Assembly: GCA_963733535.1 (NCBI GenBank)
Contig: CAVTDR010000006.1
Coordinates: 1,798,775 to 1,862,774, forward strand
DNA from: an uncultured Bacteroidota bacterium
GTDB taxonomy: Bacteria > Bacteroidota > Bacteroidia > Bacteroidales > UBA10428
Direction: 5' to 3'
DNA: 64,000 bases
Shown piece by piece: positions 3,036 through 37,686 of the stretch; positions within the stretch are counted from its first letter, which is position 1, and each line of letters starts with the position of its first letter. The position numbers were made by a program, and so were the translations under genes. The notes under the pieces are model-generated. The model had not been told where the DNA came from and did not search any database. It saw nothing but the letters and a program-made list of their open reading frames with translations.

Positions 3036-3412
3036 CGAAAAGAGGGGTTTTAGGAGAATGATAGATACTAGATACTGGATAATGGATGCTGGATGTGTGG
3101 GTGTAGTGGAACAGGGGAGAAAGGGTGGGAGACATTTATAAGGGGTTTCACCCCTTGTACCCCACTTACTTCTTTGCCATCGCTGCAAAGAAGTAAGCAA
3201 GAAAAATCTAGACAAAACGAATCCCCACGCGCTCTGCCAGAAGGCTGGAATTTCGAATAAAGTAATCGCCTAAACGGCAGTTTAGAAATACCGGTTTTTG
3301 AATGCATGTTATTAGATTAAGTCATTGTCAATTCTAATCCGTTTATGCTGAAGCCAAGGCCCTTTATTGAAATTCCAAGCCTTCCGGCATTCACCGCTTC
3401 GCCGCCATCGCG

Positions 3413-3560
3413 TTTTGTCCCGGCCAGCCCACGGTGCATCGATTGAGGTTGGTTATTGTTCGAATGTTGATGCAAAACCGGAATTCAACTACATGATTTT
3501 TTTAAATACCGTTATTTGCTTATGAAGATTGAATCAAAGATTATTGTAATTTAGATTTTA
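3413..3560 (+). promoter_or_regulatory. Module Z (conserved ~150-bp gene-5' repeat); possible promoter-bearing module
   Basis: ttttgtcccggccagcccacggtg...gaattcaactacatgattttttaaataccgttat.tgct...gaatcaaagattattgtaa recurs at 34272-34412, which ends ~30 nt before the ATG of 34445. Partial copies are at 6398-6660, 8700-8760, 22655-22700 and 36385-36450. Promoter function is inference only. Confidence 0.3.
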
Positions 3561-3763
3561 CTGATAGGAATCATGATCCTGTGGAGCTGGATCGTAAGCG
3601 AAGGAGATGACCGAAAAGAATAACCAGTACGTCCGGGTCTGTGAGGGGTTAGAGAGTTTTGGTACTTTCATAGTTGATTTATGCCATTAAGGAAGAAACA
3701 TAATCGACAGGAAATGCATTAGCTACTTTGCTTGAATTTAGCTACCTATATTTAATCAATAAT

Positions 3764-4147
3764 ATGGAAAAACATCTGGAATTTATTCAAGGAGTGATAA
3801 ATCGAATGTGTCAGAACTCATTCCTCATTAAGGGTTGGACAGTAACTCTTGTTTCTGCCTTATTTGCATTGGCGGCAAATGATACGAATCAAATATTTGT
3901 TGTTATTGCATATTTTCCAACTATAATTTTCTGGATTCTGGATAGCTACTACCTTTATCAAGAGCGTATTTTCAGAAAATTATATGATAAGGTTCGTCAA
4001 CAGCAAACTACAGACTATTCACTTTCTACAGAGGAAATTGACAATGGAGTTTCAGATTGGGCAATTGCAGCATTTTCTAAAACGATTATTCTGTTTTATG
4101 GAATTATTATTATAACTCTTCTTATTATATTGTATTGTATTATTTAA
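3764..4147 (+). CDS. small 3-TM membrane protein (hypothetical)
   Basis: ATG at 3764 (MEKHLEF...); the listed ORF start at 3728 is TTG. It has an N-terminal amphipathic helix, then hydrophobic spans at about residues 24-40, 45-65 and 107-127. No family was recognised. Confidence 0.6.
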   Translation: MEKHLEFIQGVINRMCQNSFLIKGWTVTLVSALFALAANDTNQIFVVIAYFPTIIFWILDSYYLYQERIFRKLYDKVRQQQTTDYSLSTEEIDNGVSDWAIAAFSKTIILFYGIIIITLLIILYCII

Positions 4148-4344
4148 CAGCATATGGTAAGAGAATATAGTTCAGTTTCCACTATGAGGATGTCAATGCA
4201 TTTCGTGCATCTGAACCATAAAATAGAAAGCTGAAAACAAGAGCATGTAAAATTAATACTTATCCTGTTTATGTTTGGGATTGGATATAATAACGGAAGT
4301 TGGAAAGCAGACAAGATCGCAGGAAAGTATGTTTCGCCTAAAAT

Positions 4345-5019
4345 ATGAAAACGAGTACAGCGATAAAAACTTACCATTTCACAAGTACGGAACTTAATCA
4401 AGTTCGTGACTATTACTTAAAGAGAAAAGTGCAGCTTAATGAAGTTATTCAAGCATTTAGTAGTGTTAAATATTCGCAATACGATATATTTTTAACCCAT
4501 AGGTCTACAGACAAAGAGCTTATAGATATATTATTTTTAGAACTTAAGTCTGACACATATAATGTATATGTGGATTGGTATGATCCGGAACTTAATCGAG
4601 ATGACATTACTGAGAAATCAGCTGAATTAATCAGATTAAGTATTCGTAAGTCAAAGTGTTTGATTTATGCAACACCAGTAAGTGACGATATGTCAAAATG
4701 GATGCCATGGGAATGCGGATATATGGATGGCTACAGTGGAAATGTTGCAATATTACCAATAATGGAGGAGCCAGATATGAAATTTAAGGGTCAGGAATTT
4801 TTAGGTCTCTATCCCTTAATAAAAAAGGGAGAAGACAATAAGTTATATGTGGTTTTTTCTGATGGGAGAATAATATTATTCGATGATTGGATTGCAAAGG
4901 TTCCAGCCACACGAAATGAAATCTTTAACACATACATGATCCAACAAGAGCAAATAGAAAAAAATCCACTTCAGGGAATTGGAACCATAAATCTTAAAAA
5001 CAATATAAAATTCTTATAG
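4345..5019 (+). CDS. TIR-like domain protein
   Basis: YDIFLTHRSTDKELID (beta-A/BB-loop-like start), then CLIYATPVSDDMSKWMPWECGY with a Glu in the position of the TIR catalytic Glu (S.W...E). The domain size fits. This is motif recognition only. Confidence 0.6.
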   Translation: MKTSTAIKTYHFTSTELNQVRDYYLKRKVQLNEVIQAFSSVKYSQYDIFLTHRSTDKELIDILFLELKSDTYNVYVDWYDPELNRDDITEKSAELIRLSIRKSKCLIYATPVSDDMSKWMPWECGYMDGYSGNVAILPIMEEPDMKFKGQEFLGLYPLIKKGEDNKLYVVFSDGRIILFDDWIAKVPATRNEIFNTYMIQQEQIEKNPLQGIGTINLKNNIKFL

Positions 5020-5931
5020 ATGAAGGCAGTCTGGTCATTATGGACAAAACCACTTTTGCAAACATCAAATAATGGATTATGGTCTTTTAATCATTATCTA
5101 TATTCCTGGATAATTTCAGTAATGACAATAAATCGGTTTTTCAATAGAACAGAATTATATACAGATGATTTTGGGAAACTGATTTTAGTTGATATTCTTA
5201 AAATACCTTTTGATAAAGTATATCTAAATCTTAACGAATTAGAAGATTTAAATATTAATTGGTGGGCAGCAGGTAAGATTCAAACTTATAGTTTACAGAA
5301 AGAACCATTTATTCATTTCGATAGTGATGTGTATTTATGGGATCGTCTTCCGGAAAGAATAATGTCAGCTAATATTTGTGCTCAAAGTCCGGAGTTTTTT
5401 AATAGCAATAACAGGGACTCATATTATAAACTTAAAGAAATTGAAGAAAATATTAAAAATGGCAATGGTTGGTTGCCTGGATATTGGAAAAATTACACAT
5501 CAGGTAGAGTTAATTTTGAAGCTTCTTGCTGTGGAATATTCGGAGGTAATGATTTAAAACTAATAAGAACATATTCAAAAAATGCATTAAATATTATTTG
5601 TCTTAAACGAAACAAGGATATCTGGAATACATGGGGAAATATTGCATTGGGTAATGTTCTTGTAGAACAATTTTTTCTAACATTAACTGTAGCTGCAAAA
5701 GGCAAAACTAATATTGAGTATCTGTTTAATGAATATGAAAACCCTTTCTCTGAAACTACTGAAAATAAATATTACACGCACTTAATATCTACAGCTAAAA
5801 GCGATATTATGGTACAAAAATTAATTGAAAGATTTATATTTCTTAATTGTTTGGAATATGTACCGAGAACTAGAAATGCAATACAGGTAATAGAAAATAA
5901 TTTAATTAAGTACAGCACACAACATGCGTAA
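5020..5931 (+). CDS. hypothetical protein, nucleotide-sugar-transferase-like (WSLWTKP N-terminus, HFDSDVYLW DxD-like motif)
   Basis: Its ATG directly follows the TAG of the TIR-like gene (5017-5019 then 5020). The motifs resemble an uncharacterised glycosyltransferase-like DUF common in Bacteroidota. That assignment is from memory and unverified. Confidence 0.5.
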   Translation: MKAVWSLWTKPLLQTSNNGLWSFNHYLYSWIISVMTINRFFNRTELYTDDFGKLILVDILKIPFDKVYLNLNELEDLNINWWAAGKIQTYSLQKEPFIHFDSDVYLWDRLPERIMSANICAQSPEFFNSNNRDSYYKLKEIEENIKNGNGWLPGYWKNYTSGRVNFEASCCGIFGGNDLKLIRTYSKNALNIICLKRNKDIWNTWGNIALGNVLVEQFFLTLTVAAKGKTNIEYLFNEYENPFSETTENKYYTHLISTAKSDIMVQKLIERFIFLNCLEYVPRTRNAIQVIENNLIKYSTQHA

Positions 5932-5996
5932 ATGTTGCTTTTTTTATATTTATTCCGGGTCGGACAAAGCTCTTATATAGAATGCAATTGTTTTTT

Positions 5997-6092
5997 TTCG
6001 AATCCGGGTCGGACCGGACTTAAGAATTAAATATCAATGAATTAACCCATAAAACATCCTTGTTTTTAACCTTAGAAGGCACTTTTGGGGGG
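5997..6092 (+). repeat. Module A, intact copy (preceded at ~5968-5996 by a solo IS1595 end remnant)
   Basis: ttcgaatccgggtcggaccggacttaagaattaaatatcaatgaattaacccataaaacatccttgtttttaaccttagaaggcacttttgggggg. It starts 66 nt after the stop of 5020..5931. Confidence 0.8.
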
Positions 6093-6096
6093 TGTG

Positions 6097-6347
6097 CTTC
6101 GACAAGCTCAGCAACCGAGGATCGACAGGCTCAGTAACCGTACTTCGACAGGCTCAGTAACCGTACTTCGACAGGCTCAGTAACCGTACTTCGACAGGCT
6201 CAGTAACCGTACTTCGACAAGCTCAGCAACCGTACTTCGACAAGCTCAGTAACCGTACTTCGACAAGCTCAGTAACCGAGGATCGATAGGCTCAGTAACC
6301 GGGGATGGGTAATCGGTAATCGGTGCTTCGACAAGCTCAGCAACCGG
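6097..6347 (+). repeat. 23-bp tandem repeat array (cttcgacaggctcagtaaccgta), ~9 units plus 1 separated unit
   Basis: Direct reading shows units differing only at a/g (acaAg/acaGg) and c/t (cagCaa/cagTaa). No spacers are present. Confidence 0.9.
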
Positions 6348-6766
6348 AACGGATACCTGCCTGCCCGGCTTGTCCCTTGCATGGCAGACAGGCAGGATTT
6401 TGTCCCGGCCAGCCAACGGTGCTTTGAATGAGGGCTGTTTTAATTCGATTGTTGATATAAAAATGTACCGTACCTTGAAAGCCATAACATAGATGTAGGA
6501 ACATATTATTCTAAATTTATTTTATTTCCATCCATTCCGAATATGATTTTATTCACGGGATACATTATCATTTTCTTTATTTTAACAAGAAATAAAGAAA
6601 TTAATAAATAAAGTTTTCTGAAATTCACCTACATGATTTTTTAGGTACCGTTACACTATAGATATTAAAGACCTATTCTCAGAGCAAAGTAACTTCCAGG
6701 TTCTATGAAAGGTAAATAGCTTTGAATGATCTTAAATAGTAATTATTCATATAAATATTTAATGCC

Positions 6767-7873
6767 ATGGACAAAATAATTGAAAACAATTCCATTCCAT
6801 CCGGTACTTTATTGAATAATATTTTGCCGGAAGAAAAAAATGAACTCAAAAAAAATAAAATCAAAGGATCATCATTGGACAAATCATTTATTAATAAAAA
6901 ACAAAAAATGAATGGATTTAAAAACCTGGATAATAGGAATTTTAACAGAAATTCCATTACCTATATCATTGTTATTCCAATTTTTATGGTGGGTGTTATC
7001 CTCCTGTCTCTTGGTATTATTTGTGAAGAATATGATTGGGGTATTGATAGAATTGTATCACTGATAATTAAAGAAATAGGCGTAGTTCTGATGGTTGTTG
7101 CTGTTATTCATTCAGTTTATGAACTACGTATTCATAAATATTTGCATGGAGATATTATGAAACTGGGGTTTAATGTTGAAAAACTTCAGAAAACGGTATC
7201 CATTGTAGGTGGCGCTATTGAGAGTGGATTATCTGCTGTTTATAGTTCCAGAGAAGAAGTAAACAAGGCCATTGAAGAAGAAATTGAAAATATGAAACCC
7301 AAATCAACCTTAAAATTATTAGGTATTTCTTTGGGTGCTTTTTTATGCCCACATGGGGCATTGCATGGATCTTTCAGGCAATTATTGGCGAAACGGGAAA
7401 TTGAAGTAATTGCCTTACTCCTTAATGCAGATTCAGATGCGGCATTAGAAAGAGCTAAATTGGAAGAGCCAAGATTCTTTATGAATAAGAAGACTGAAAT
7501 TGAAATAAACGAGGCATATCAAAAAACAAGATGTCATAATGAGCTCAAAACAGCAACTGACTTTGCACAGGATATTGCTGATCATTGTTGGTTCAGAGAT
7601 AATAATAAAGGTCAAAGTCCCGTAGATGCTCCAAATGAACCACCTATAAATGCTAACTTTTCTTACAAAGTATATGATGTTTCTCCACTTTGTTATTTGG
7701 TAATCTTTGAAAATTGTATGTTTTTGGAAAACTATCATAACGCTGGTAGAGGTGGCGAAGCTTCAGTTCTTAAAATCGGGAAGCAAAGTGGCGAATCAAT
7801 GGAAATGACCAGTTTATTCAGAATATATGAGAATCATTTTAATGTAATGAAAAATCACAGTGAATCCAAGTAA
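6767..7873 (+). CDS. 2-TM membrane protein with a C-terminal domain of unknown function (possibly DUF5919/PLD-like fold)
   Basis: 368 aa with two hydrophobic helices at about residues 66-120. The C-terminal pattern GLSAVYSSR...LLGISLGAF...VIALLLNADS...YKVYDVSPLCYLVIFENCMFLENYH..GRGGE resembles DUF5919 as I remember it. This is unverified. Confidence 0.45.
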   Translation: MDKIIENNSIPSGTLLNNILPEEKNELKKNKIKGSSLDKSFINKKQKMNGFKNLDNRNFNRNSITYIIVIPIFMVGVILLSLGIICEEYDWGIDRIVSLIIKEIGVVLMVVAVIHSVYELRIHKYLHGDIMKLGFNVEKLQKTVSIVGGAIESGLSAVYSSREEVNKAIEEEIENMKPKSTLKLLGISLGAFLCPHGALHGSFRQLLAKREIEVIALLLNADSDAALERAKLEEPRFFMNKKTEIEINEAYQKTRCHNELKTATDFAQDIADHCWFRDNNKGQSPVDAPNEPPINANFSYKVYDVSPLCYLVIFENCMFLENYHNAGRGGEASVLKIGKQSGESMEMTSLFRIYENHFNVMKNHSESK

Positions 7874-7917
7874 TTTGAGCCTTAATTAATTTTCTTTATT
7901 TGTAGCCATTTTTTTAA

Positions 7918-8011
7918 ATCGAATCGGTCGGACCAATCTTAATGGTTAAATATCAATGAATTAACCCCAAAAATACCCTTGTTTTTGACTTTAGAGGGTG
8001 CTTTTGGGGGG
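7918..8011 (+). repeat. Module A, intact (diverged) copy
   Basis: atcgaatcggtcggaccaatcttaatggttaaatatcaatgaattaaccccaaaaatacccttgtttttgactttagagggtgcttttgggggg. It starts 45 nt after the stop at 7873. Confidence 0.75.
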
Positions 8012-8015
8012 TGTG

Positions 8016-8150
8016 CTTCGACAAGCTCAGCAACCGTACTTCGACAGGCTCAGCAACCGTACTTCGACAGGCTCAGCAACCGTACTTCGACAGGCTCAGT
8101 AACCGTACTTCGACAAGCTCAGTAACCGAGGATCGATAGGCTCAGAAACC
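8016..8150 (+). repeat. 23-bp tandem repeat array (~5-6 units)
   Basis: Same unit as the array at 6097-6347. Confidence 0.9.
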
Positions 8151-8871
8151 GGCGGTCGGTAAACGGTAATCGGTGTTGAGAACAGATGCTGGTTAATGGT
8201 TTCTGGATGCTTGATGTGTGGGTGGGGTGGAACAGGGGTGTGGGAAATCAACAATCCAATCAATAAATAAATTAACCAAATAATCTAAGTTCATTCGAAC
8301 TGGTACAACTTCAATCAAAACACCGTGGGTTGGCCGGGACAAAACCCTGCCTGCCACCGCACGGCCTAAGCCAGGCCAGGTAATGAAGTTTTAGTTCTTC
8401 ACACAGTTCTATAGCAACCTATGAATTGAAACTGAGCCGAACAGATACTGGATACCTTTTTGCGTATCATGCAAAAAGAGCTAACTATGATCACCTTTAC
8501 CGACTGATATTGAATTTCAAGAAATACCTAGATATTAGAGTCAAAACCAATCCTAAAGTAATTATGTCAACAAATCCGGGTTAAACCAGACTTAAAGTTT
8601 AAATAGCAATGAATTAACCACACGTTCGTCGTAGTTTTCTTCAGATTTTAACTATACCGCTTTTAACCTTAGTCGACTGCCATTAAGTGGGATTTAACTG
8701 TACCAAATTTCAATAATTCAAGTACATGTTTTTTTAAGGGCCGTTATATTAATTTAATTTTTAAAGCAGATAGCGAAACATAATCCTGAGAAGTCGGATA
8801 GGGCAACCGAAGCCCACTTTTAGCTTTTTCGTCTTTTTTATAATTGAACCAAACTATTTAATAGTAAGAGT

Positions 8872-9624
8872 ATGGAAAAAAAATGTCCGAATTGTGGAAA
8901 ATTAACAGATAAACTAGTTAAAATCGATAATGCACAGGTATCAGCTGAAATCACTGAACTGGTTGGAGTTGCTTATTCAAGCGCAGATCATTATTGTGTT
9001 ACGTGCGCCAGACAAATGATTGGGATTTCTGATGAAGATTTAATTATAGAAGATAGATACCGCTCAAAAAATTCAAATTTTCAAATTAGCTTACTAAAAG
9101 GGAAAATTGGACAAATAATTCTTGAAAGTATTTTTGAAAATTTTGGATATGAGGTTCATCCCTACGGTTATGAAAGTCGTTTGACAAATATCATCAAAAG
9201 TTTGAGAAAGAACTGGTCAAATCAGGTAATCCGGCAAATTCGTTCTACCCCTGATCTATTAGTATACGATAAGGAAAAGAATGAAGGATTTTTAATTGAA
9301 GTAAAGTTCACAACTTTAAAACCTGAGGACTATTGGATTGAAGAAAAGCAATTAAAAAAATATATGGAATTATGGGGACCAGCAATTTTGATAGTTATTC
9401 AATATCCAACTTTGAGAATATTCTGTAAAACTTTTAATGAAATATTACTGGACGATTTGACTTTAACTTCGCCAAGTTTTGCCCCTGATTCTGTTGGTTA
9501 TAAGTTGAAATTGGAGGATCTTTTTTCCGACTTGTGTCAACAATTTCGATTAATCAATAAGGACGAATTGACCTTATTTCTGGACCGAATAAAGAATGAA
9601 ATATTGAGTAAGTACGACAGTTAA
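8872..9624 (+). CDS. Zn-ribbon + PD-(D/E)xK (restriction-endonuclease-like) domain protein
   Basis: N-terminal CPNC...CVTC zinc ribbon. The C-terminal part has GQIILESIFENFGYEV (E), STPDLLVYD (D) and FLIEVKF (ExK), in the order expected for a PD-(D/E)xK nuclease core. Confidence 0.55.
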   Translation: MEKKCPNCGKLTDKLVKIDNAQVSAEITELVGVAYSSADHYCVTCARQMIGISDEDLIIEDRYRSKNSNFQISLLKGKIGQIILESIFENFGYEVHPYGYESRLTNIIKSLRKNWSNQVIRQIRSTPDLLVYDKEKNEGFLIEVKFTTLKPEDYWIEEKQLKKYMELWGPAILIVIQYPTLRIFCKTFNEILLDDLTLTSPSFAPDSVGYKLKLEDLFSDLCQQFRLINKDELTLFLDRIKNEILSKYDS

Positions 9625-9822: not shown

Positions 9823-10389
9823 ATGAATAACGAAAAAATTAACCCAAAAGAACTAATCATTGATATGCATCGTCATTCTCAAAGTCTTTATGATGCTGAA
9901 CTTGACATATATCTTGAGAATGAAAAGATTGCTAACTGGTTGTTTGGACTTTCAACCGGTGGCTTAGTATTTGCTTCCTCCCGAATTGACTCGGAAAATA
10001 CTTCTAAAATTAAGTGCATTTTAATTTTTGTTTTCATTTCATTTATTCTTTTACTTATAACTATTTTCTTTCTTAAGATGTTCACAAGGGCAATAAAGCA
10101 GTATGTTCATAGAATTAAATTTTATTTTGATTCGATTAAACTAAGACTATTGAACTACTCAAATCAAATAGAAGTTGATTTAAAAGCTAATACTGAAACT
10201 ATTTTTACTGTTTACAACAAATTTCTTGAAGGAAAATATGAAAGCGGAAACTCAGGCGATCTTTTCAAGAATGGAATTAAAGACTATGATGGAGCCGTTA
10301 GATTTGCAGCGATTTTAAACTGGGCTTGTATCTTAGTATTTGTAATTCAATATATTTTGATTTTTATATTAGTATTAAGATCAATATAG
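9823..10389 (+). CDS. hypothetical membrane protein
   Basis: 188 aa with hydrophobic spans at about residues 40-60, 65-90 and 160-188. No motif was recognised. Confidence 0.45.
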   Translation: MNNEKINPKELIIDMHRHSQSLYDAELDIYLENEKIANWLFGLSTGGLVFASSRIDSENTSKIKCILIFVFISFILLLITIFFLKMFTRAIKQYVHRIKFYFDSIKLRLLNYSNQIEVDLKANTETIFTVYNKFLEGKYESGNSGDLFKNGIKDYDGAVRFAAILNWACILVFVIQYILIFILVLRSI

Positions 10390-10413: not shown

Positions 10414-10622
10414 GGCTATTATATAGAATACAGTTGTTTTTGATAAAACTCCTTAATTTGTTCTATAGGGATGTAGACAGCGTTGTTTGACAGTGACATC
10501 TCGCGATAGCTTTTATTTGGATCATTATATTTCTTCGACGACTCAAGTATCCTATAGTAGGACAAATAGTTTATCATGTATTTGTCGGAAACCCCATGAA
10601 ATGTTCTGATCCATTCCTTCAA
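10414..10622 (-). pseudogene. truncated IS1595 copy (terminal ~209 bp carrying the transposase C-terminus)
   Basis: Starts with GGCTATTATATAG directly after ..ggggtcggacca. Homology to the full copies ends at ..ccattccttcaa. The ORF 10419..10730 carries only the last ~70 aa of the transposase. Confidence 0.85.
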
Positions 10623-10741
10623 AATTGCAACCGTATGTGTTATATAAGCATATATAAACTTTTGGGCGGAAATGGTATTTAAAAGATGAATTTTACCTCG
10701 ATCAGTGCTTCTATAGTACAAGTAACGCAAGCAATGCAGCT

Positions 10742-10888: not shown

Positions 10889-11716
10889 ATGGATAAAGAC
10901 AAGTTGAAAAGTTATCTTGAGAAGGGAACAGATATAACAGGAGGAGCTGTTGGGGGAGCAATTGGATTAATAGGAGGTCCAGTTGGTGCTATCTTAGGCG
11001 GAGGATTAGGCGTGGCCCTTTCAATTGGAGTAAAAGAAATAATTAGTAGACATCTTTCGGAGAGAGAAAATTCTAGGACTGCTGCGTCAACTGCTTATGT
11101 GATTACAGGGATTAAAGATAAGCTTGATTCAGGCTTGCAAATAAGGACTGATAACTTTTTTGATAATTCTACTGGCAGAAGCTCTGCTGATGAATTATTT
11201 GAGGGTGTATTATTGAAATGTAAAGATCAATATCAGGAAAAGAAAATAAAATATATTTCAAAGATATTTGAGAAAGCAACCTTTGATTATGGAATTTCAG
11301 CAGAGACCGCAAATCAAATATTATCTATGGCTGAGAGCTATACATATCGAAAGTATTGCATAATATCATTTTTTGCACAAAAGGATGAATTGTATGATAC
11401 TTCCAAGTTAATGCAAGAAGTTTATTCATGGTATCCTAATGCTGTATTTTCGTTTGAACTTGAAATTTTAAAACAAGATATATTTGAATTAGTTAATTCT
11501 GGTATTGTAGACCAAAATAATTTAATGATGGTAACAAGAAACGAAGTTGTTCCAGGCGATTTTATACTTACAAAAATAGGGAAAGCTTTATATGATATTA
11601 TGGACTTAGTAGAAATACCAAAGTCAGATATTGACCCAATCTATAATGAACTGCTTTATAAGGAGGAATTTGGCATTAGTGAACATGGAACGAAAAATAA
11701 AATTAAACAAAACTAG
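10889..11716 (+). CDS. hypothetical protein with N-terminal glycine-zipper segment
   Basis: GGAVGGAIGLIGGPVGAILGGGLGVALSIG at residues ~18-47. The rest is predicted soluble and no family was recognised. Confidence 0.5.
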   Translation: MDKDKLKSYLEKGTDITGGAVGGAIGLIGGPVGAILGGGLGVALSIGVKEIISRHLSERENSRTAASTAYVITGIKDKLDSGLQIRTDNFFDNSTGRSSADELFEGVLLKCKDQYQEKKIKYISKIFEKATFDYGISAETANQILSMAESYTYRKYCIISFFAQKDELYDTSKLMQEVYSWYPNAVFSFELEILKQDIFELVNSGIVDQNNLMMVTRNEVVPGDFILTKIGKALYDIMDLVEIPKSDIDPIYNELLYKEEFGISEHGTKNKIKQN

Positions 11717-12215: not shown

Positions 12216-13472
12216 TCATGCTGCAGTTTTTATGTATTGTATTTTATGCTCGTAATCAAATGCTTGATTGTTCTTAATTAAGGAATGGATCGTTCGTAAC
12301 AATTTGCGTGATATAGCAATAATTGCCTTTTTCTTTTCCATTCCTTTATTCACATACATTGTGTATTGTTCATGGTAAATACCCCCCTTCTTAACCATTC
12401 GCAAGGCAAGAAAATATAAACTGGTACGTAAATGCTCATTGCCTACTTTTGATATTCTTCTGTTACCTCTATGGTTACCTGAACTGTTTTCAATCAAATT
12501 TAGTCCTCCAAACTTAAGTAGTTCTTTGTTTGTCTTGAATTGGCTAAATTCTCCGATCTCAGAAATAATTGTTGCTATGGTAATATCACCTATCCCTTTT
12601 ATGGTTCTGAGAATATAATATTCTTCCAGGGAAGCCAATGATGCTTTGATCTGATTCTCAACAGCTGACATTTGTGTGTCAAACAACTCTATTTGAACAA
12701 TATATGCTAAAACCATGCTCTGATAGGATTCAAGCCCATCTCTAACTCCAATAGTATTAAAAGCAGCTGTAATAAGCTCTTCAGCTTTTTTTATATTACA
12801 TCTTCCCCTGCTTATTTTTTGGAGTTCTTTTATCAATGGCTCCAGACCTAGCTTTATAATACTCCCTGGACTTGGATGGTTTTTTAGTAAAAATGTACTG
12901 GTTTTGCAACTAATGTCTTTAAACAAATCTAAATATTCTGGAAAGTATAAAGACAAAATAGCATGTATACGGTTCACAACCCTTTTACGGTCAGCCTGCA
13001 AAGCTTTTCTGGAACGTGTTAACTCTCTCACATTCGCCTTTACCCCTTGAGGCAGATTTACCCTTAGGCTGCTTCCAATAAGAACTACTTGAGCGATTAC
13101 TTTGGGATCTTTATGATCTGTTTTATTAGGGGTATTGTCTGTTACATCTTTGAATCGTTTAGTATGCTTTCCATTAACCTGCACGAGGGAGTAATTTGTA
13201 TTGTTATGAATGTAATATGCCAATGGGAGCCAGTAATTTCCTGTTGACTCTACTGCGATTACTACATTTTCAATATCGTTAACCTTTGTAAATCTGTTTA
13301 TTTTACCTATTAACAAATTAAATCCTTCTCTTGTGTTGGAGAACTGAAAGCTCTTTGCTGATTCATAACTCAATGTTAAGAAAAAGCCGTAATGATTGCT
13401 TTTACCGATGTCGATTCCAACTATCAAAGTTTTTCCGTTTACTTTTATAAATTTGTACTGTTTATTTTTCAT
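12216..13472 (-). CDS. IS110-family DEDD transposase/recombinase
   Basis: 418 aa. It has an N-terminal RuvC-like DEDD domain (VGIDIGKSNH, ESTGNYW) and a C-terminal HhH/Transposase_20-type region (IKGIGDITIATIISEIGEFSQF...SSGNHRGNRRISKVGNEHLR). Confidence 0.85.
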   Translation of the reverse strand: MKNKQYKFIKVNGKTLIVGIDIGKSNHYGFFLTLSYESAKSFQFSNTREGFNLLIGKINRFTKVNDIENVVIAVESTGNYWLPLAYYIHNNTNYSLVQVNGKHTKRFKDVTDNTPNKTDHKDPKVIAQVVLIGSSLRVNLPQGVKANVRELTRSRKALQADRKRVVNRIHAILSLYFPEYLDLFKDISCKTSTFLLKNHPSPGSIIKLGLEPLIKELQKISRGRCNIKKAEELITAAFNTIGVRDGLESYQSMVLAYIVQIELFDTQMSAVENQIKASLASLEEYYILRTIKGIGDITIATIISEIGEFSQFKTNKELLKFGGLNLIENSSGNHRGNRRISKVGNEHLRTSLYFLALRMVKKGGIYHEQYTMYVNKGMEKKKAIIAISRKLLRTIHSLIKNNQAFDYEHKIQYIKTAA

Positions 13473-22861: not shown

Positions 22862-23746
22862 ATGTATTACAGAAGAAAGATATTATTGGCCCTGTTGGAC
22901 CAGTTTGGCGGAAAGCTTGACAAAATTAGCCTTCAAAAATTGCTGTTTCTTTTTGTAAGACAGCAAGAAAATAAGTCGTTTCATTTTGTCCCCTATAAAT
23001 TCGGATGTTATTCGTTTCAGGCAAATGCAGATTTAAAAACACTTGCAAAATATGAACAAACCATTGATACCGAAAAGCATTGGGAGAAAATAGATAAGAA
23101 GGACTACTTTCTTGATTTAAAATCAAAAGATAAAGTAGCATTAAGGTTTATAAAATCACAATATGAAAAACTGAACTGTGATGAGTTAATTGAGCTCACT
23201 TATAAAAAATATCCCTTTTTTGCGATTAATAGTACGATCGCGGCCAATTTCTTAACTGAAGATGAATTAAGACAGATTGAAAGTCATAGACCTGTTAAAA
23301 AGGAAACTGTCCTGTTTACTATCGGATATGAAGGGGTGTCGTTGGAACAATATATTAATAAGCTGATTATTAATGATGTCAAAGTTCTCTGTGATGTAAG
23401 AAAGAATCCGGTTAGTATGAAATTTGGATTTAGTAAGAATCAGCTTATTAAAGCCTGTGAGGGAGTGGGTATTGAATACATACATTTTCCTGAAGTTGGT
23501 ATTGATAATGATAAGAGACAAGAATTAAATAATCAATCTGATTATGACAGGCTCTTTGTTTTTTACAGGGATACTATCCTGCCAAAGGAAACAAACAAAC
23601 AATTGGAATTACTGGAATTAATAGGTAGTAAAAAACGGATTGCTCTCACTTGTTTTGAAGCCAATATATGTCAGTGTCATAGAAAGTATTTGGCAGAAGC
23701 ACTGGAATCGTTAGGTGAATCTCATTTTGAAATTATACATCTTTAA
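22862..23746 (+). CDS. DUF488 domain fusion protein (unassigned N-terminal ~150 aa + C-terminal DUF488)
   Basis: The C-terminal part, TIGYEGVSLEQYINKLIINDVKVLCDVRKNPVSMKFGFSKNQL..GIEYIHFPEVG...LTCFEANICQCHR, is DUF488-like. The N-terminal part (KISLQKLLFLF..FVPYKFGCYS) is reminiscent of SocA/Panacea-type domains. Both assignments are unverified. Confidence 0.55.
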   Translation: MYYRRKILLALLDQFGGKLDKISLQKLLFLFVRQQENKSFHFVPYKFGCYSFQANADLKTLAKYEQTIDTEKHWEKIDKKDYFLDLKSKDKVALRFIKSQYEKLNCDELIELTYKKYPFFAINSTIAANFLTEDELRQIESHRPVKKETVLFTIGYEGVSLEQYINKLIINDVKVLCDVRKNPVSMKFGFSKNQLIKACEGVGIEYIHFPEVGIDNDKRQELNNQSDYDRLFVFYRDTILPKETNKQLELLELIGSKKRIALTCFEANICQCHRKYLAEALESLGESHFEIIHL

Positions 23747-24564
23747 TGGTAAAAACCAAAGTGCTCATCACAGTAAAGACCTATCCTGCTATTTCAAAAA
23801 AATATGAAGAATTGGTATGTACAGCAGGATTTCTTGAAGATGGTACCTGGATTAGAATTTATCCGATTCAATTTCGAAAAAAGGCATATAGTCAGCAATA
23901 TTCAAAGTATGAATGGATAGAACTGGATTTGGTAAAAAATGAAATTGATTTTAGACCGGAAAGTTATAGACCGGTTTCTCATGATACGCTGATCGAAAAA
24001 GTGGGTGAAATTATACCAGATGGGAATACCTGGGAAGAAAGAAGAAAAATTGTACTAAAAAAGGTCTATACCAATCTCAGTAAGCTCATTGATGAGGCAA
24101 AAGACAAAGCTATCTGTACTTCACTGGCTGTTTTTAAACCTTCCGGGATATTAGACTTTGTGTATGAAAAAGAAAAGGTAAGGGAATGGTCAGCAGACAA
24201 ACTTTCTCAGTTTCAACAGTACAACTTATTTGAAACAGATAAAAATAATAACTTTAAAGTAGTAAAGAAGTTACCATACAAGTTTAGTTATATTTTCAGA
24301 TCAGAAGATGGTATAAAGAGAAAGATGATGATTGAAGATTGGGAAACCGGTCAATTATACTGGAATAGCTATAATAGACATGATGGTGATGAAACAAAAG
24401 CCTGTCAAGATGTTCGTAAAAAATACTTTGATGATTTTGCTAAAACCAAGGATTTATATTTCTTCCTGGGAACTACAAAACAACATCACTTCACAGGCAA
24501 AAATCCATTTGTAATAATTGGAACTTTTCATCCGAAGCCAATTTTGCAATATTCATTGTTTTAA
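23746..24564 (+). CDS. hypothetical protein (no family recognised)
   Basis: 272 aa. Its ATG overlaps the upstream stop (TAATG at 23744-23748). The composition looks coding. Confidence 0.55.
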   Translation: MVKTKVLITVKTYPAISKKYEELVCTAGFLEDGTWIRIYPIQFRKKAYSQQYSKYEWIELDLVKNEIDFRPESYRPVSHDTLIEKVGEIIPDGNTWEERRKIVLKKVYTNLSKLIDEAKDKAICTSLAVFKPSGILDFVYEKEKVREWSADKLSQFQQYNLFETDKNNNFKVVKKLPYKFSYIFRSEDGIKRKMMIEDWETGQLYWNSYNRHDGDETKACQDVRKKYFDDFAKTKDLYFFLGTTKQHHFTGKNPFVIIGTFHPKPILQYSLF

Positions 24565-30329: not shown

Positions 30330-32001
30330 CTAATTTAACTTAGACAAGTTTAATTGAATATATTTTGATGTAATAGTGTTAATACCTGGAAATAACTCGT
30401 AGTTTACGGAGAGTTATTCTGGGTATTAACACTTTTCTTTTTTGCTACTTTTTTCTTTTGTTCATAAGACTAATTTTTGTTTAAAACAACAGCTTTTAAT
30501 GGAAGCCAAGATCGTCTAATACTAATATTTTGATGGTCCTGATTGGCCATATTCTTACTTAATCGAGACTATATCAAGGCCGACAAAGGGAGCCTTAAAG
30601 CTGGGGCAGAAGGTCTTTAAAAAAGCCTTAAAGTATCCAGAGATGCTTCCCTTTGCCGTACCAAAATCATGCTGCAGTTTTTATGTATTGTATTTTATGC
30701 TCGTAATCAAATGCTTGATTGTTCTTAATTAAGGAATGGATCGTTCGTAACAATTTGCGTGATATAGCAATAATTGCCTTTTTCTTTTCCATTCCTTTAT
30801 TCACATACATTGTGTATTGTTCATGGTAAATACCCCCCTTCTTAACCATTCGCAAGGCAAGAAAATATAAACTGGTACGTAAATGCTCATTGCCTACTTT
30901 TGATATTCTTCTGTTACCTCTATGGTTACCTGAACTGTTTTCAATCAAATTTAGTCCTCCAAACTTAAGTAGTTCTTTGTTTGTCTTGAATTGGCTAAAT
31001 TCTCCGATCTCAGAAATAATTGTTGCTATGGTAATATCACCTATCCCTTTTATGGTTCTGAGAATATAATATTCTTCCAGGGAAGCCAATGATGCTTTGA
31101 TCTGATTCTCAACAGCTGACATTTGTGTGTCAAACAACTCTATTTGAACAATATATGCTAAAACCATGCTCTGATAGGATTCAAGCCCATCTCTAACTCC
31201 AATAGTATTAAAAGCAGCTGTAATAAGCTCTTCAGCTTTTTTTATATTACATCTTCCCCTGCTTATTTTTTGGAGTTCTTTTATCAATGGCTCCAGACCT
31301 AGCTTTATAATACTCCCTGGACTTGGATGGTTTTTTAGTAAAAATGTACTGGTTTTGCAACTAATGTCTTTAAACAAATCTAAATATTCTGGAAAGTATA
31401 AAGACAAAATAGCATGTATACGGTTCACAACCCTTTTACGGTCAGCCTGCAAAGCTTTTCTGGAACGTGTTAACTCTCTCACATTCGCCTTTACCCCTTG
31501 AGGCAGATTTACCCTTAGGCTGCTTCCAATAAGAACTACTTGAGCGATTACTTTGGGATCTTTATGATCTGTTTTATTAGGGGTATTGTCTGTTACATCT
31601 TTGAATCGTTTAGTATGCTTTCCATTAACCTGCACGAGGGAGTAATTTGTATTGTTATGAATGTAATATGCCAATGGGAGCCAGTAATTTCCTGTTGACT
31701 CTACTGCGATTACTACATTTTCAATATCGTTAACCTTTGTAAATCTGTTTATTTTACCTATTAACAAATTAAATCCTTCTCTTGTGTTGGAGAACTGAAA
31801 GCTCTTTGCTGATTCATAACTCAATGTTAAGAAAAAGCCGTAATGATTGCTTTTACCGATGTCGATTCCAACTATCAAAGTTTTTCCGTTTACTTTTATA
31901 AATTTGTACTGTTTATTTTTCATAAAGACTGCTATTTTAGATTCTTAAGTCAAATCAAACTTAGCAGTCTTTTTTTATTCTGCAATATAGTAAGCTGGAT
32001 A
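30330..32001 (-). mobile_element. IS110/IS1111-like insertion sequence, copy 2 (1672 bp), head-to-tail with copy 3
   Basis: The left junction is cagatactggata|ct. The element ends ..agtaagctggata at 32001 and copy 3 starts at the next base. Confidence 0.85.
30667..31923 (-). CDS. IS110-family DEDD transposase/recombinase
   Basis: 418 aa, identical to 12216..13472. Confidence 0.85.
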   Translation of the reverse strand: MKNKQYKFIKVNGKTLIVGIDIGKSNHYGFFLTLSYESAKSFQFSNTREGFNLLIGKINRFTKVNDIENVVIAVESTGNYWLPLAYYIHNNTNYSLVQVNGKHTKRFKDVTDNTPNKTDHKDPKVIAQVVLIGSSLRVNLPQGVKANVRELTRSRKALQADRKRVVNRIHAILSLYFPEYLDLFKDISCKTSTFLLKNHPSPGSIIKLGLEPLIKELQKISRGRCNIKKAEELITAAFNTIGVRDGLESYQSMVLAYIVQIELFDTQMSAVENQIKASLASLEEYYILRTIKGIGDITIATIISEIGEFSQFKTNKELLKFGGLNLIENSSGNHRGNRRISKVGNEHLRTSLYFLALRMVKKGGIYHEQYTMYVNKGMEKKKAIIAISRKLLRTIHSLIKNNQAFDYEHKIQYIKTAA

Positions 32002-33673
32002 CTAATTTAACTTAGACAAGTTTAATTGAATATATTTTGATGTAATAGTGTTAATACCTGGAAATAACTCGTAGTTTACGGAGAGTTATTCTGGGTATTA
32101 ACACTTTTCTTTTTTGCTACTTTTTTCTTTTGTTCATAAGACTAATTTTTGTTTAAAACAACAGCTTTTAATGGAAGCCAAGATCGTCTAATACTAATAT
32201 TTTGATGGTCCTGATTGGCCATATTCTTACTTAATCGAGACTATATCAAGGCCGACAAAGGGAGCCTTAAAGCTGGGGCAGAAGGTCTTTAAAAAAGCCT
32301 TAAAGTATCCAGAGATGCTTCCCTTTGCCGTACCAAAATCATGCTGCAGTTTTTATGTATTGTATTTTATGCTCGTAATCAAATGCTTGATTGTTCTTAA
32401 TTAAGGAATGGATCGTTCGTAACAATTTGCGTGATATAGCAATAATTGCCTTTTTCTTTTCCATTCCTTTATTCACATACATTGTGTATTGTTCATGGTA
32501 AATACCCCCCTTCTTAACCATTCGCAAGGCAAGAAAATATAAACTGGTACGTAAATGCTCATTGCCTACTTTTGATATTCTTCTGTTACCTCTATGGTTA
32601 CCTGAACTGTTTTCAATCAAATTTAGTCCTCCAAACTTAAGTAGTTCTTTGTTTGTCTTGAATTGGCTAAATTCTCCGATCTCAGAAATAATTGTTGCTA
32701 TGGTAATATCACCTATCCCTTTTATGGTTCTGAGAATATAATATTCTTCCAGGGAAGCCAATGATGCTTTGATCTGATTCTCAACAGCTGACATTTGTGT
32801 GTCAAACAACTCTATTTGAACAATATATGCTAAAACCATGCTCTGATAGGATTCAAGCCCATCTCTAACTCCAATAGTATTAAAAGCAGCTGTAATAAGC
32901 TCTTCAGCTTTTTTTATATTACATCTTCCCCTGCTTATTTTTTGGAGTTCTTTTATCAATGGCTCCAGACCTAGCTTTATAATACTCCCTGGACTTGGAT
33001 GGTTTTTTAGTAAAAATGTACTGGTTTTGCAACTAATGTCTTTAAACAAATCTAAATATTCTGGAAAGTATAAAGACAAAATAGCATGTATACGGTTCAC
33101 AACCCTTTTACGGTCAGCCTGCAAAGCTTTTCTGGAACGTGTTAACTCTCTCACATTCGCCTTTACCCCTTGAGGCAGATTTACCCTTAGGCTGCTTCCA
33201 ATAAGAACTACTTGAGCGATTACTTTGGGATCTTTATGATCTGTTTTATTAGGGGTATTGTCTGTTACATCTTTGAATCGTTTAGTATGCTTTCCATTAA
33301 CCTGCACGAGGGAGTAATTTGTATTGTTATGAATGTAATATGCCAATGGGAGCCAGTAATTTCCTGTTGACTCTACTGCGATTACTACATTTTCAATATC
33401 GTTAACCTTTGTAAATCTGTTTATTTTACCTATTAACAAATTAAATCCTTCTCTTGTGTTGGAGAACTGAAAGCTCTTTGCTGATTCATAACTCAATGTT
33501 AAGAAAAAGCCGTAATGATTGCTTTTACCGATGTCGATTCCAACTATCAAAGTTTTTCCGTTTACTTTTATAAATTTGTACTGTTTATTTTTCATAAAGA
33601 CTGCTATTTTAGATTCTTAAGTCAAATCAAACTTAGCAGTCTTTTTTTATTCTGCAATATAGTAAGCTGGATA
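32002..33673 (-). mobile_element. IS110/IS1111-like insertion sequence, copy 3 (1672 bp)
   Basis: It starts exactly 1672 bp after copy 2. The right flank is ttggatgcctgcctgcc.. (the hairpin module). Confidence 0.85.
32339..33595 (-). CDS. IS110-family DEDD transposase/recombinase
   Basis: 418 aa, identical to the other two copies. Confidence 0.85.
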   Translation of the reverse strand: MKNKQYKFIKVNGKTLIVGIDIGKSNHYGFFLTLSYESAKSFQFSNTREGFNLLIGKINRFTKVNDIENVVIAVESTGNYWLPLAYYIHNNTNYSLVQVNGKHTKRFKDVTDNTPNKTDHKDPKVIAQVVLIGSSLRVNLPQGVKANVRELTRSRKALQADRKRVVNRIHAILSLYFPEYLDLFKDISCKTSTFLLKNHPSPGSIIKLGLEPLIKELQKISRGRCNIKKAEELITAAFNTIGVRDGLESYQSMVLAYIVQIELFDTQMSAVENQIKASLASLEEYYILRTIKGIGDITIATIISEIGEFSQFKTNKELLKFGGLNLIENSSGNHRGNRRISKVGNEHLRTSLYFLALRMVKKGGIYHEQYTMYVNKGMEKKKAIIAISRKLLRTIHSLIKNNQAFDYEHKIQYIKTAA

Positions 33674-36876: not shown

Positions 36877-37686
36877 ATGGATAGCACCAAATATGTACAT
36901 GGATATTCTGAAAGAGAAGCGTTGCGACTAAATGACCAGGCAGCTACATTAGATGACATTATTCACCATGATTCCCTGTTTCCCAAAGATAGTTTGGTTC
37001 TTGAGGCTGGCTGTGGAGTGGGAGCGCAAACAAAAATAATCGCCACAAAAAATCCGGATTCCAATTTCATATCGGTTGATTTATCGGAGGAGTCGATACG
37101 GGAAGCCATAGAGATGATACAATCTTCAGGCATTCATAATGTGGAGTTCAGGCAGGCTGATATGTATCATTTGCCGTTCAATGACGAGACTTTTGATGGT
37201 GTGATGATTTGTTTTGTGCTGGAACACCTTCATAATCCTATACAAGCGCTGAAAGAAGCAAAAAGGGTATTAAAAAATGGAGGAACATTGATAGCCATTG
37301 AGGGCGACCATGGTTCCACATTCTTCTATCCTGATAGTGAGAATGCGTATACAGCTATAAATTGCCAGATTCAACTTCAAAAACAAAGTGGCGGCAACTC
37401 CAATATCGGGAGAGAGCTATATCCTTTATTTAAAACAATTGCGCTTTCTGATATCTCTGTTACACCAAGGGTGGTTTATGTAGACGCAAGCAGACCAAGC
37501 CTTGTAGAAGGATTTATAAAGAATACATTTACAGCAATGATTGAGGGTATTGGTGAAATGGCAATACAGCAGGGCATCGTGGATAGAATGACATTTGAGA
37601 ATGGTATTAAGGATCTATACCGGACATCGGAGCCTGATGGCGTGTTCAGTTATACATTTTTCAAGGGATTTGGAATAAAAAAATAA
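36877..37686 (+). CDS. class I SAM-dependent methyltransferase
   Basis: HGYSEREALRLNDQA N-terminus, motif I VLEAGCGVGAQT, and FDGVMICFVLEHL. Confidence 0.75.
   Translation: MDSTKYVHGYSEREALRLNDQAATLDDIIHHDSLFPKDSLVLEAGCGVGAQTKIIATKNPDSNFISVDLSEESIREAIEMIQSSGIHNVEFRQADMYHLPFNDETFDGVMICFVLEHLHNPIQALKEAKRVLKNGGTLIAIEGDHGSTFFYPDSENAYTAINCQIQLQKQSGGNSNIGRELYPLFKTIALSDISVTPRVVYVDASRPSLVEGFIKNTFTAMIEGIGEMAIQQGIVDRMTFENGIKDLYRTSEPDGVFSYTFFKGFGIKK

Follow-up and report, generated by a model that had tools for sequence, protein, structure and literature searches.

What role does a TIR gene play when it stands immediately ahead of a gene for a glycosyltransferase-like protein and just downstream of a gene for a small membrane protein? 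This question is raised by a locus near the start of a 64,000-nucleotide stretch (hereafter the window) of contig CAVTDR010000006.1 from an uncultured Bacteroidota bacterium. A preliminary description made from the DNA letters had proposed a new TIR architecture without any usual partner, in which either the membrane protein is the effector or the transferase acts on a TIR-made nucleotide. We favour another reading, with a probability of roughly 50%: the locus would be a Thoeris-family anti-phage signalling locus rebuilt by recombination, with the glycosyltransferase-like protein, a member of Pfam family DUF6734, as an accessory to the tail of the TIR protein. Family assignments, fold, cassette boundaries, the relic of a second TIR gene (thsB) and the enrichment of a C-terminal tag were computed here. 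All open reading frames (ORFs) of the locus lie on the + strand, and the coordinates of its features in the 64-kb window are as follows.

3764..4147, + strand: thsF-like gene for a 127-amino-acid (aa) protein with three transmembrane (TM) helices, the presumed membrane effector (PADLOC PDC-M50A).
4154..4215, + strand: 5′ end of a second thsB (FSFHY / PDC-M50B type), now a decayed stub with a frameshift and stop codons (tblastn, DNA alignment).
4301..4330, + strand: 3′ remnant of the same decayed thsB (match to the ThsB C-terminus of relative L001).
4345..5019, + strand: thsB-type TIR gene, 224 aa, its TIR core spanning roughly residues 45-170 and followed by a C-terminal tail (PADLOC ThsB, 8BTN_B).
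4711..4713, + strand: codon of Glu123 within WMPWE, presumed to be the catalytic residue (invariant, aligned to 8BTN).
4975..4995, + strand: GIGTINL (residues 211-217), a C-terminal tag that DUF6734 is proposed to recognise (in 6/6 DUF6734-linked TIRs).
5020..5931, + strand: DUF6734 gene, 303 aa, with a predicted GT-A, glycosyltransferase family 8 (GT8)-like fold (Pfam PF20508, AlphaFold2 (AF2), Foldseek).
5314..5328, + strand: HFDSD (H99, D101, D103), the HxDxD metal / nucleoside diphosphate (NDP)-sugar motif of DUF6734 (invariant in the alignment).
5954..6047, no strand: downstream cassette boundary, a 42-nucleotide (nt) IS1595-like end fragment followed by a 47-nt repeat (repeat families D5 and D6; homology to L001 ends at 5924).

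The three ORFs are all present and intact where the preliminary description had placed them, and the TIR stop codon (TAG, 5017-5019) directly abuts the ATG at 5020 of the DUF6734 gene, reading TAGATGA, as it had reported. Its TIR-like core is likewise there, with both YDIFLTHRSTD and SKWMPWECGY present. The 224-aa protein matches the PADLOC ThsB model at E 2.5e-41; the Pfam TIR_2 model scores below threshold (E 0.006). It also matches other ThsB models, with the exception of the PDC-M50B model (PDLC04688), which gave no match. A profile built from this TIR and 13 homologues hits 8BTN_B, a chain of solved structure named ‘TIR domain-containing protein’, over its full length at E 7e-63, which upholds the suspected TIR fold; a literature search found nothing on 8BTN. 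In this alignment SKWMPWEcGY of the family falls on SLWMPWELGY of 8BTN, and the proposed catalytic residue, Glu123, is invariant in all 14 homologues. The family is small, with 14 clusters in a set of 5.8 billion proteins, which is the basis of all cluster counts given here. Its relatives at 40-47% identity come from Thoeris loci of types I and IV, where they stand next to a SIR2-STALD ThsA or a caspase-like Peptidase_C14 and usually to extra ThsB genes. Judged against Table S1 of a recent survey (Yirmiya et al., bioRxiv 10.64898/2025.12.03.692087), the TIR domain shares 43-47% identity with domains of one cluster that serves Thoeris types I, IV, V and IX; two entries that bear the label ‘DUF2270 - Type V’ are 45% and 43% identical to it. 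By profile and motif, 4345-5019 is a genuine ThsB-type TIR. Separately, in loci L081, L082 and L099-L101 a cassette resembling type IV Thoeris (ThsB_TIR, caspase-like Peptidase_C14 and TIR) is inserted within a type I restriction-modification locus, flanked on one side by several hsdS genes and an integrase (shufflon-like) and on the other by hsdR.

The 303-aa partner begins MKAVWSLWTKP and matches DUF6734 (PF20508) over residues 1-280 with 188.4 bits (E 2.3e-55; curated cut-off 27 bits). We found no paper mentioning DUF6734 in the literature and no match of the protein to a Pfam glycosyltransferase family, and its profile gave no match to PDB sequences even at E 10. The AF2 model is confident (pLDDT 93.6, pTM 0.92), and Foldseek matched it to GT-A enzymes only: in the PDB to the UGGT catalytic domain (GT24), glycogenin (GT8) and GT6, and in BFVD to viral GT8-type glycosyltransferases, with probability 1.0, TM-scores of ~0.45-0.55 and identities of 9-16%. 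Invariant among 32 homologues are H99, D101, D103, Q122, E216, Q217, H254 and K260, which we take to resemble the GT8 pattern DxD...Q...H...K as a whole rather than residue by residue. The DxD glycosyltransferase-like character suspected earlier is thus borne out by the fold of the model, the Foldseek matches and the invariant HxDxD, and DUF6734 is a putative glycogenin/GT8-like GT-A enzyme that appears catalytically intact.

To place this family in context we used 80 genome loci, kept out of 248 relatives found. About 70 of these 80 have DUF6734 as the last gene of a module that encodes Baseplate_J, a ~780-aa protein, DUF6519 and DUF6734. DUF6519 has been described as the eBAP5 baseplate-anchor domain of the tail fibres of extracellular contractile injection systems (eCIS) (PMC12923769). 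DUF6734 is not a TIR-specific domain, and because there are hundreds of loci with no TIR, its conserved active site would serve a TIR-independent function. Paralogues of DUF6734 stand in tandem in the eCIS-type loci L018 and L026, and at L065 (1953-5978) the domain forms the C-terminal part of a 1341-aa protein.

Among these 80 loci, this TIR gene occurs directly before DUF6734 only in the four closest relatives (L001-L004, 55-88% identity), where the two genes always abut or overlap; a fifth such pair, L084, comes from a metagenome, giving six members when the window is counted. This TIR-linked subclade comprises six clusters for each protein. DNA homology between the window and L001 (89%) covers 4304-5924, that is, the two genes and 41 nt upstream, and in comparison with the closest relative dN/dS is 0.21 (TIR gene) and 0.15 (DUF6734). 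A homologue of the membrane protein (the PDC-M50A family) lies ahead of the TIR gene in the window, L002, L004 and L084, so the gene order seen in the window does recur elsewhere; the upstream DNA of L001 is cut by the contig end, and L003 has a divergent 406-aa ThsB-like gene upstream instead of the TM gene. Downstream of DUF6734, no fourth gene is common to the six loci. Judged by its conservation and its boundaries, TIR+DUF6734 is a discrete, rare, conserved two-gene cassette under purifying selection.

What links the two proteins is suggested by the C-terminus of the TIR. The six DUF6734-linked TIRs carry a tail of ~40 residues with a cluster of tyrosines followed by GIG[TIM]xN[LI], and this tail is absent from the TIR relatives without DUF6734 (P0074-P0081). 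Partners encoded upstream of DUF6734 more generally end in, or close to, a motif of the class [GA][IV]G[TGSA]x[LN..][LIV], such as GIGTDLL, AIGGDLL or GIGSHLL. We found the motif in 44/58 upstream partners compared with 23/1980 among the remaining ORFs (100 aa or longer) of these loci, and shuffled tails gave a mean of 0.11 hits. After removal of the tails the partners fall into seven families that are unrelated by BLAST, and the tag is found in all seven: DUF6519 (32/46), TIR (6/6) and five small families. The tag lies 20-200 nt ahead of the DUF6734 start with varying codons, and tyrosine is 2.5-fold enriched in the 22 residues that precede it. On viral contigs, where DUF6734 homologues are 22-32% identical and the upstream gene is often 75-130 aa long with a Tyr-rich end and xIGxxNLL, a relaxed form of the tag was seen in 16/50 unique partners compared with 12/1283 other ORFs (shuffles 0.76); this count is indicative, since the motif was relaxed after the tails had been seen. 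Across loci L005-L080 and L103-L164, the tag-ending proteins upstream of DUF6734 are DUF6519 eCIS fibres, other large proteins and 75-150-aa proteins of phage contigs. Two other explanations of the tag were rejected. It is not a Shine-Dalgarno artefact, in which AGGAGG would be read as I-G-G, given its distance of 20-200 nt and its varying codons; nor is it inherited within DUF6519 only, given the seven families without detectable mutual similarity once tails are removed. These data suggest a general pairing of tag and enzyme, previously undescribed, and because unrelated upstream proteins share the tag, DUF6734 would recognise the tag on its upstream client.

Applied to the window, this means that the probable target of DUF6734, whether bound or modified, is the tail of the TIR and not a nucleotide that the TIR makes. 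The latter option, in which DUF6734 uses or modifies the TIR product, for example as a glycosylated ADP-ribose (ADPR) derivative that serves as a new signal for the membrane effector, had in its general form been raised in the preliminary description; we found nothing in favour of a transferase acting on such a nucleotide, the evidence pointing to the C-terminal peptide tag of the TIR. Its general appeal is that GT-A enzymes bind NDP-sugars, to which ADP-ribose derivatives are chemically related, that the abutting TIR and DUF6734 genes suggest translational coupling, and that the signals of some Thoeris TIRs are still unidentified. Against this stand the ~70 of 80 genome DUF6734 genes with no TIR nearby, which follow tail-fibre genes, the tag on unrelated upstream proteins, which indicates a protein client, and a window TM protein of the ordinary Bacteroidota type that is normally paired with a standard ThsB. 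We therefore regard nucleotide reworking as very improbable. A further step, which we put forward tentatively and at well below even odds, is that DUF6734 is a tag-directed, glycogenin-like protein glycosyltransferase, probably acting on tyrosine, that modifies the tail of the protein encoded upstream and in this locus works as an on/off switch of the TIR sensor.

The third intact gene would tie this cassette to known Thoeris systems. A mechanical ORF call for the membrane protein begins at TTG 3728; homologues and an independent gene call favour ATG 3764, which gives the 127 aa reported earlier. Three hydrophobic segments (~19-38, 41-62 and 99-127 by hydropathy) agree with the three helices of the preliminary description. 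The protein has no family in Pfam or NCBIfam and matches PADLOC PDC-M50A (PDLC04686) at E 2.2e-50. This TM family is large (5070 clusters at 50% identity), and many of its members in Bacteroidota share 65-81% identity with the protein of the window. In all metagenomic and plasmid loci examined (L085-L089, L092-L095) it adjoins ThsB-type TIR genes. The operons of L085-L087 read 258-aa TIR, TM, then a 163-194-aa ThsB_TIR that is PDC-M50B, with TM proteins 70-80% identical to that of the window; L088 and L089 have the order SEFIR/TIR, 266-aa TIR, TM; and TM plus TIR pairs also occur on plasmids of Priestia, Terribacillus, Desulforapulum and Klebsiella. The earlier suggestion of a membrane effector is sound in that the 3-TM protein recurs beside TIR genes. 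The claim of a new TIR architecture with no usual partner was overstated: the TM plus TIR pair is already catalogued as the PADLOC candidate PDC-M50.

Some members of the TM family are parts of larger or broken genes. Four form the C-terminal modules of longer proteins (P0222, P0246, P0275 and one other in alignment A3). In three of them the fusion partner is the octameric membrane protein domain (Pfam 8xMP), in the fourth a SLOG nucleotide-sensor domain (SLOG cluster 2), a fusion that counts in favour of the Thoeris reading. On the Klebsiella plasmid NZ_AP021974.1 (L092), an IS3 insertion sequence (IS) interrupts a ThsF-like TM gene downstream of a 250-aa TIR, leaving it in two parts at 3270-3539 and 5013-5297. 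Plasmids with matches to the TM family number ~40 in Klebsiella and 36 in Escherichia.

The survey of Yirmiya et al. validated type V Thoeris (ThsB plus ThsF) by experiment; according to it, ThsF is annotated as DUF2270, has three TM helices, answers 3′ cyclic ADP-ribose (3′cADPR) and is enriched in Bacteroidota (bioRxiv 10.64898/2025.12.03.692087). Compared with TIRs listed there, the 258-aa TIR that flanks the TM family is 46% identical to the validated Bacillus thuringiensis type V ThsB, a PDC-M50B-type TIR is 51% identical to another ‘DUF2270 - Type V’ TIR, and the best plasmid match of this second labelled TIR directly follows a member of the TM family of the window. PDC-M50A is likely to be ThsF, because the flanking TIRs resemble type V TIRs and the plasmid match of a labelled TIR follows a TM-family gene. 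The TM plus TIR pairing of the window probably corresponds to type V Thoeris.

The membrane gene and the TIR gene lie 197 nt apart, close to the ~200 nt noted before, and what looks like a plain spacer is, by alignment, the remnant of a second thsB gene. Using tblastn, residues 3-20 of the PDC-M50B-type TIR of L085 match 4159-4212 with 72% identity, and an ATG at 4154 lies four nt past the usual thsB start of L085 and L086. The frameshifted translation, KRI, a stop codon and then FSFHYEDVNAFRA, corresponds to the N-terminus of a PDC-M50B-type TIR, and DNA alignment to the thsB starts of L085, L086 and L095 agrees with a 5′ stub. At the other end, 4301-4330 reads WKADKIAGK, and the intact upstream ThsB of L001 ends in EWIEKAAKDAGK before its stop codon. 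The 258-aa TIR found ahead of the TM gene in other loci has left no trace in the window. Because a stub stands at the 5′ end and a remnant matches the ThsB of L001, the ancestral order would have been thsF-thsB-TIR-DUF6734, the middle gene having since lost ~400 nt or more.

The decayed gene also bears on a further explanation, in which TIR+DUF6734 is a self-contained two-gene Thoeris-type system, DUF6734 is a toxin-like GT-A effector that glycosylates a cellular or phage target once activated by the TIR signal or by the TIR itself, and the TM gene is left over from a decayed type V system. GT-A glycosylating toxins are an established class. The cassette boundaries match the two genes exactly, the pair in L003 has no adjacent TM gene, the TM gene in the window is followed by the stub of a thsB of its own, different Thoeris types do cluster in one island, and the catalytic residues of DUF6734 are invariant. 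Yet DUF6734 has no extra ligand-sensing domain, its usual place is that of a conserved gene after eCIS tail fibres rather than of variable cargo, the shared tag argues that the upstream protein is a client and not an activator, and a TM homologue is upstream in four of the five loci with upstream DNA. We consider a self-contained system doubtful.

Several observations weigh against the reading of a rebuilt Thoeris locus with DUF6734 as an accessory. For the cassette, no TM gene is found within 6 kb upstream of TIR-DUF6734 in L003, which hints that the pair may be self-sufficient with DUF6734 as the effector. For the TIR protein, the AF2 model built from 14 sequences is poor (pLDDT 46.9) and its tail is not readable; this model was left out of the fold searches. 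For the membrane protein, Pfam PF10028 (DUF2270) gave no match up to E 10 with the window protein and four relatives, and one of 71 TM-family members gave a marginal match (E 0.003); the DUF2270 label was not found through the cluster names of the family either, and plasmid searches toward a validated ThsF sequence returned only PDC-M50A-family relatives. Because PF10028 is unmatched, the identification of the window TM protein as ThsF draws on gene context and TIR similarity. Additionally, the window TM protein is 37% identical to the TM proteins of L002 and L084 compared with 81% to ordinary Bacteroidota ones. Because it is far from the former and near the latter, effector and cassette appear to have been joined by recombination; the TM gene was probably brought in that way and may belong functionally to the decayed thsB. 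For DUF6734 itself, no hydroxyl-bearing position of the tag is invariant, which makes the tag an unlikely site of glycosylation, and the idea of a tyrosine acceptor has only two sources, the 2.5-fold Tyr enrichment and the glycogenin-like fold.

In the rebuilt Thoeris locus that we favour, the 3-TM protein would be a ThsF-like membrane effector and the 224-aa protein a ThsB-type TIR signalling enzyme, with a second, canonical thsB once encoded between them and now a relic. From related validated systems we infer that infection would lead the TIR to turn NAD+ into a cyclic ADP-ribose isomer, most likely 3′cADPR by analogy with related type I, V and IX TIRs, and that the signal would cause the oligomeric TM protein to breach the membrane so that infection is aborted. 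The arrangement suggests that the TIR of the cassette may make a signal that ordinary ThsF-like proteins can read. DUF6734 would be coupled to the TIR through the GIGTINL tag and the tyrosines ahead of it, docking on the tail or glycosylating it, and would control the TIR by priming, restraint or sensing rather than by reworking the nucleotide signal. Signal chemistry, effector action and the action of DUF6734 on the tail are the inferred parts of this scheme.

The surroundings of the locus raise the last alternative. The window is Bacteroidota-like, with a type IX secretion system sorting domain and a SusC-like receptor, and is rich in mobile and repeated DNA. Two IS1595-like transposase genes (621-1667 and 1852-2898, 348 aa each, 97% identical; the IS1595 label is itself putative) lie upstream, a C-terminal fragment of such a gene is found at 10419-10730, and a 42-nt end fragment (5954-5995) comes right after the DUF6734 stop. 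Three IS110-family genes (12216-13472, 30667-31923 and 32339-33595) are 100% identical, the family assignment being from Pfam on the first copy. A repeat (AATCCGGGTCGGACCGGACTTAAGAATTAAATATCAATGAATTAACC plus flanks, 47-123 nt) at 1713, 2944, 6001, 7920, 8573 and 11725 brackets small cassettes in the region 1.7-11.8 kb. It is accompanied by 23-nt tandem repeats (5984-6301 and 7903-8174) and has its first ~15 bases (TCCGGGTCGGACCGG) in common with the IS1595-like end; it may be similar to a miniature inverted-repeat transposable element or be a recombination element that shuffles cassettes. At 46-600 there is a 51-nt tandem repeat of ~11 copies, in which ORF 16-570 encodes the 17-aa repeat YDSWQRNPDGTYVCGGA, its upstream part cut by the window start. 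Scans for promoters and terminators over 3300-6800 gave no more sites than shuffled sequence and hence are uninformative.

The four single-gene cassettes that follow (6767-7873, 8872-9624, 9823-10389 and 10889-11716) match no Pfam, NCBIfam or PADLOC family. That at 8872-9624 encodes a zinc ribbon with weak PD-(D/E)xK-like matches (HSDR_N_2, VRR_NUC, TnsA), and two of the other three encode membrane proteins. Further away, a complete PADLOC candidate PDC-M19 is encoded at 22862-23746 (component A, E 1e-123, with DUF488) and 23746-24564 (component B, E 6e-124), and 36877-37686 gave a partial mad2-like match. The setting of the locus had been likened to a defence island; with a PDC-M19 pair 17 kb away, an IS- and repeat-rich region and no PADLOC match in the four nearest cassettes, this label is weakly supported.

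In such a setting, rearrangement by insertion sequences and repeats could have juxtaposed the TM gene, the thsB relic and TIR-DUF6734 as a decayed or inert mosaic that forms no unit or has no defence role. The destroyed middle thsB fits such a history, as do the IS1595-like copies, the IS-end fragment and the repeats that bracket the locus, and the absence of PADLOC matches in the four nearest cassettes. However, the three ORFs are intact, TIR and DUF6734 are under purifying selection, and the order TM-TIR-DUF6734 is found again in L002, L004 and L084 at 37-62% identity, which makes an inert mosaic improbable.

Under the reading of a rebuilt Thoeris locus, the TM plus TIR part is of a catalogued kind (PDC-M50, probably type V) and the DUF6734 partner is the new element. 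Current descriptions of Thoeris comprise a TIR and an effector, Cap2/Cap3-type genes being the sole known add-ons; a tagged TIR served by a protein of glycosyltransferase fold would bring a new level of regulation to TIR signalling in bacteria. If the tail is indeed glycosylated, this would be the first bacterial TIR immune signalling controlled by glycosylation; and if the tag system is real, a portable ‘Tyr-rich + GIGxxLL’ tag would extend across immune TIRs, eCIS tail fibres and small phage proteins. The biochemistry of DUF6734 could thereby explain an uncharacterised Pfam family in three settings, namely immunity, injection machines and phages. The locus would also be a clean example of module swapping in Thoeris, in which one effector gene has had successive TIR partners and the relic of the old partner is visible.

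Among known systems, the locus is closest to type V Thoeris. Both have a small three-TM effector beside one or more ThsB-type TIR genes, with three such segments in the window protein; according to the survey, type V is enriched in Bacteroidota, as befits the Bacteroidota-like window, its listed TIR clades include those that flank the TM family and the clade of the window TIR, and its order ThsF-ThsB-ThsB is the ancestral order proposed for the window. The window differs in that its TM protein has no PF10028 match, its canonical thsB is a relic, and its TIR has an extra C-terminal tail and is paired to DUF6734, a family not mentioned in the text of the survey or in the part of its tables covered. 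PADLOC PDC-M50, a small TM protein (A) and a short ThsB-type TIR (B), is a computational candidate only, and no paper naming it was found in the literature; the window matches component A and has a B-type stub at the usual spacing, whereas no intact component B is present and the intact TIR is not PDC-M50B. The effectors of Thoeris types I, II and IV (SIR2-SLOG, TM-Macro and caspase-like) have no Pfam or PADLOC counterpart in the ORFs between 3.7 and 11.7 kb. The window TIR is homologous over its full length to 8BTN and to the TIRs of type I and IV Thoeris, with which it shares the WMPWE motif, whereas those TIRs end ~40 residues earlier, lack the Tyr...GIGxxN[LI] tail and have no DUF6734 neighbour.

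For the accessory, the nearest likeness in logic is to Cap2/Cap3 of type II CBASS and of Thoeris operons with cap2/cap3, in which an ancillary enzyme acts through the C-terminal tail of the signalling enzyme; the likeness is one of logic only, for chemistry and fold differ entirely, Cap2/Cap3 being an E1/E2-like ligase and a protease rather than a predicted GT-A fold. With glycogenin/GT8, UGGT (GT24) and GT6, DUF6734 shares the predicted fold, the DxD motif and the later conserved Q, H and K, and differs in having no sequence-level similarity to any PDB chain; glycogenin glucosylates tyrosine, and the client tails of DUF6734 are Tyr-rich. Finally, in the eCIS loci the client is a baseplate-anchored fibre (DUF6519) rather than an immune TIR, and DUF6734 there is 33-41% identical to that of the window; in both settings the DUF6734 gene abuts or overlaps the end of the gene upstream, and the protein encoded by that gene carries a tag of the same class.

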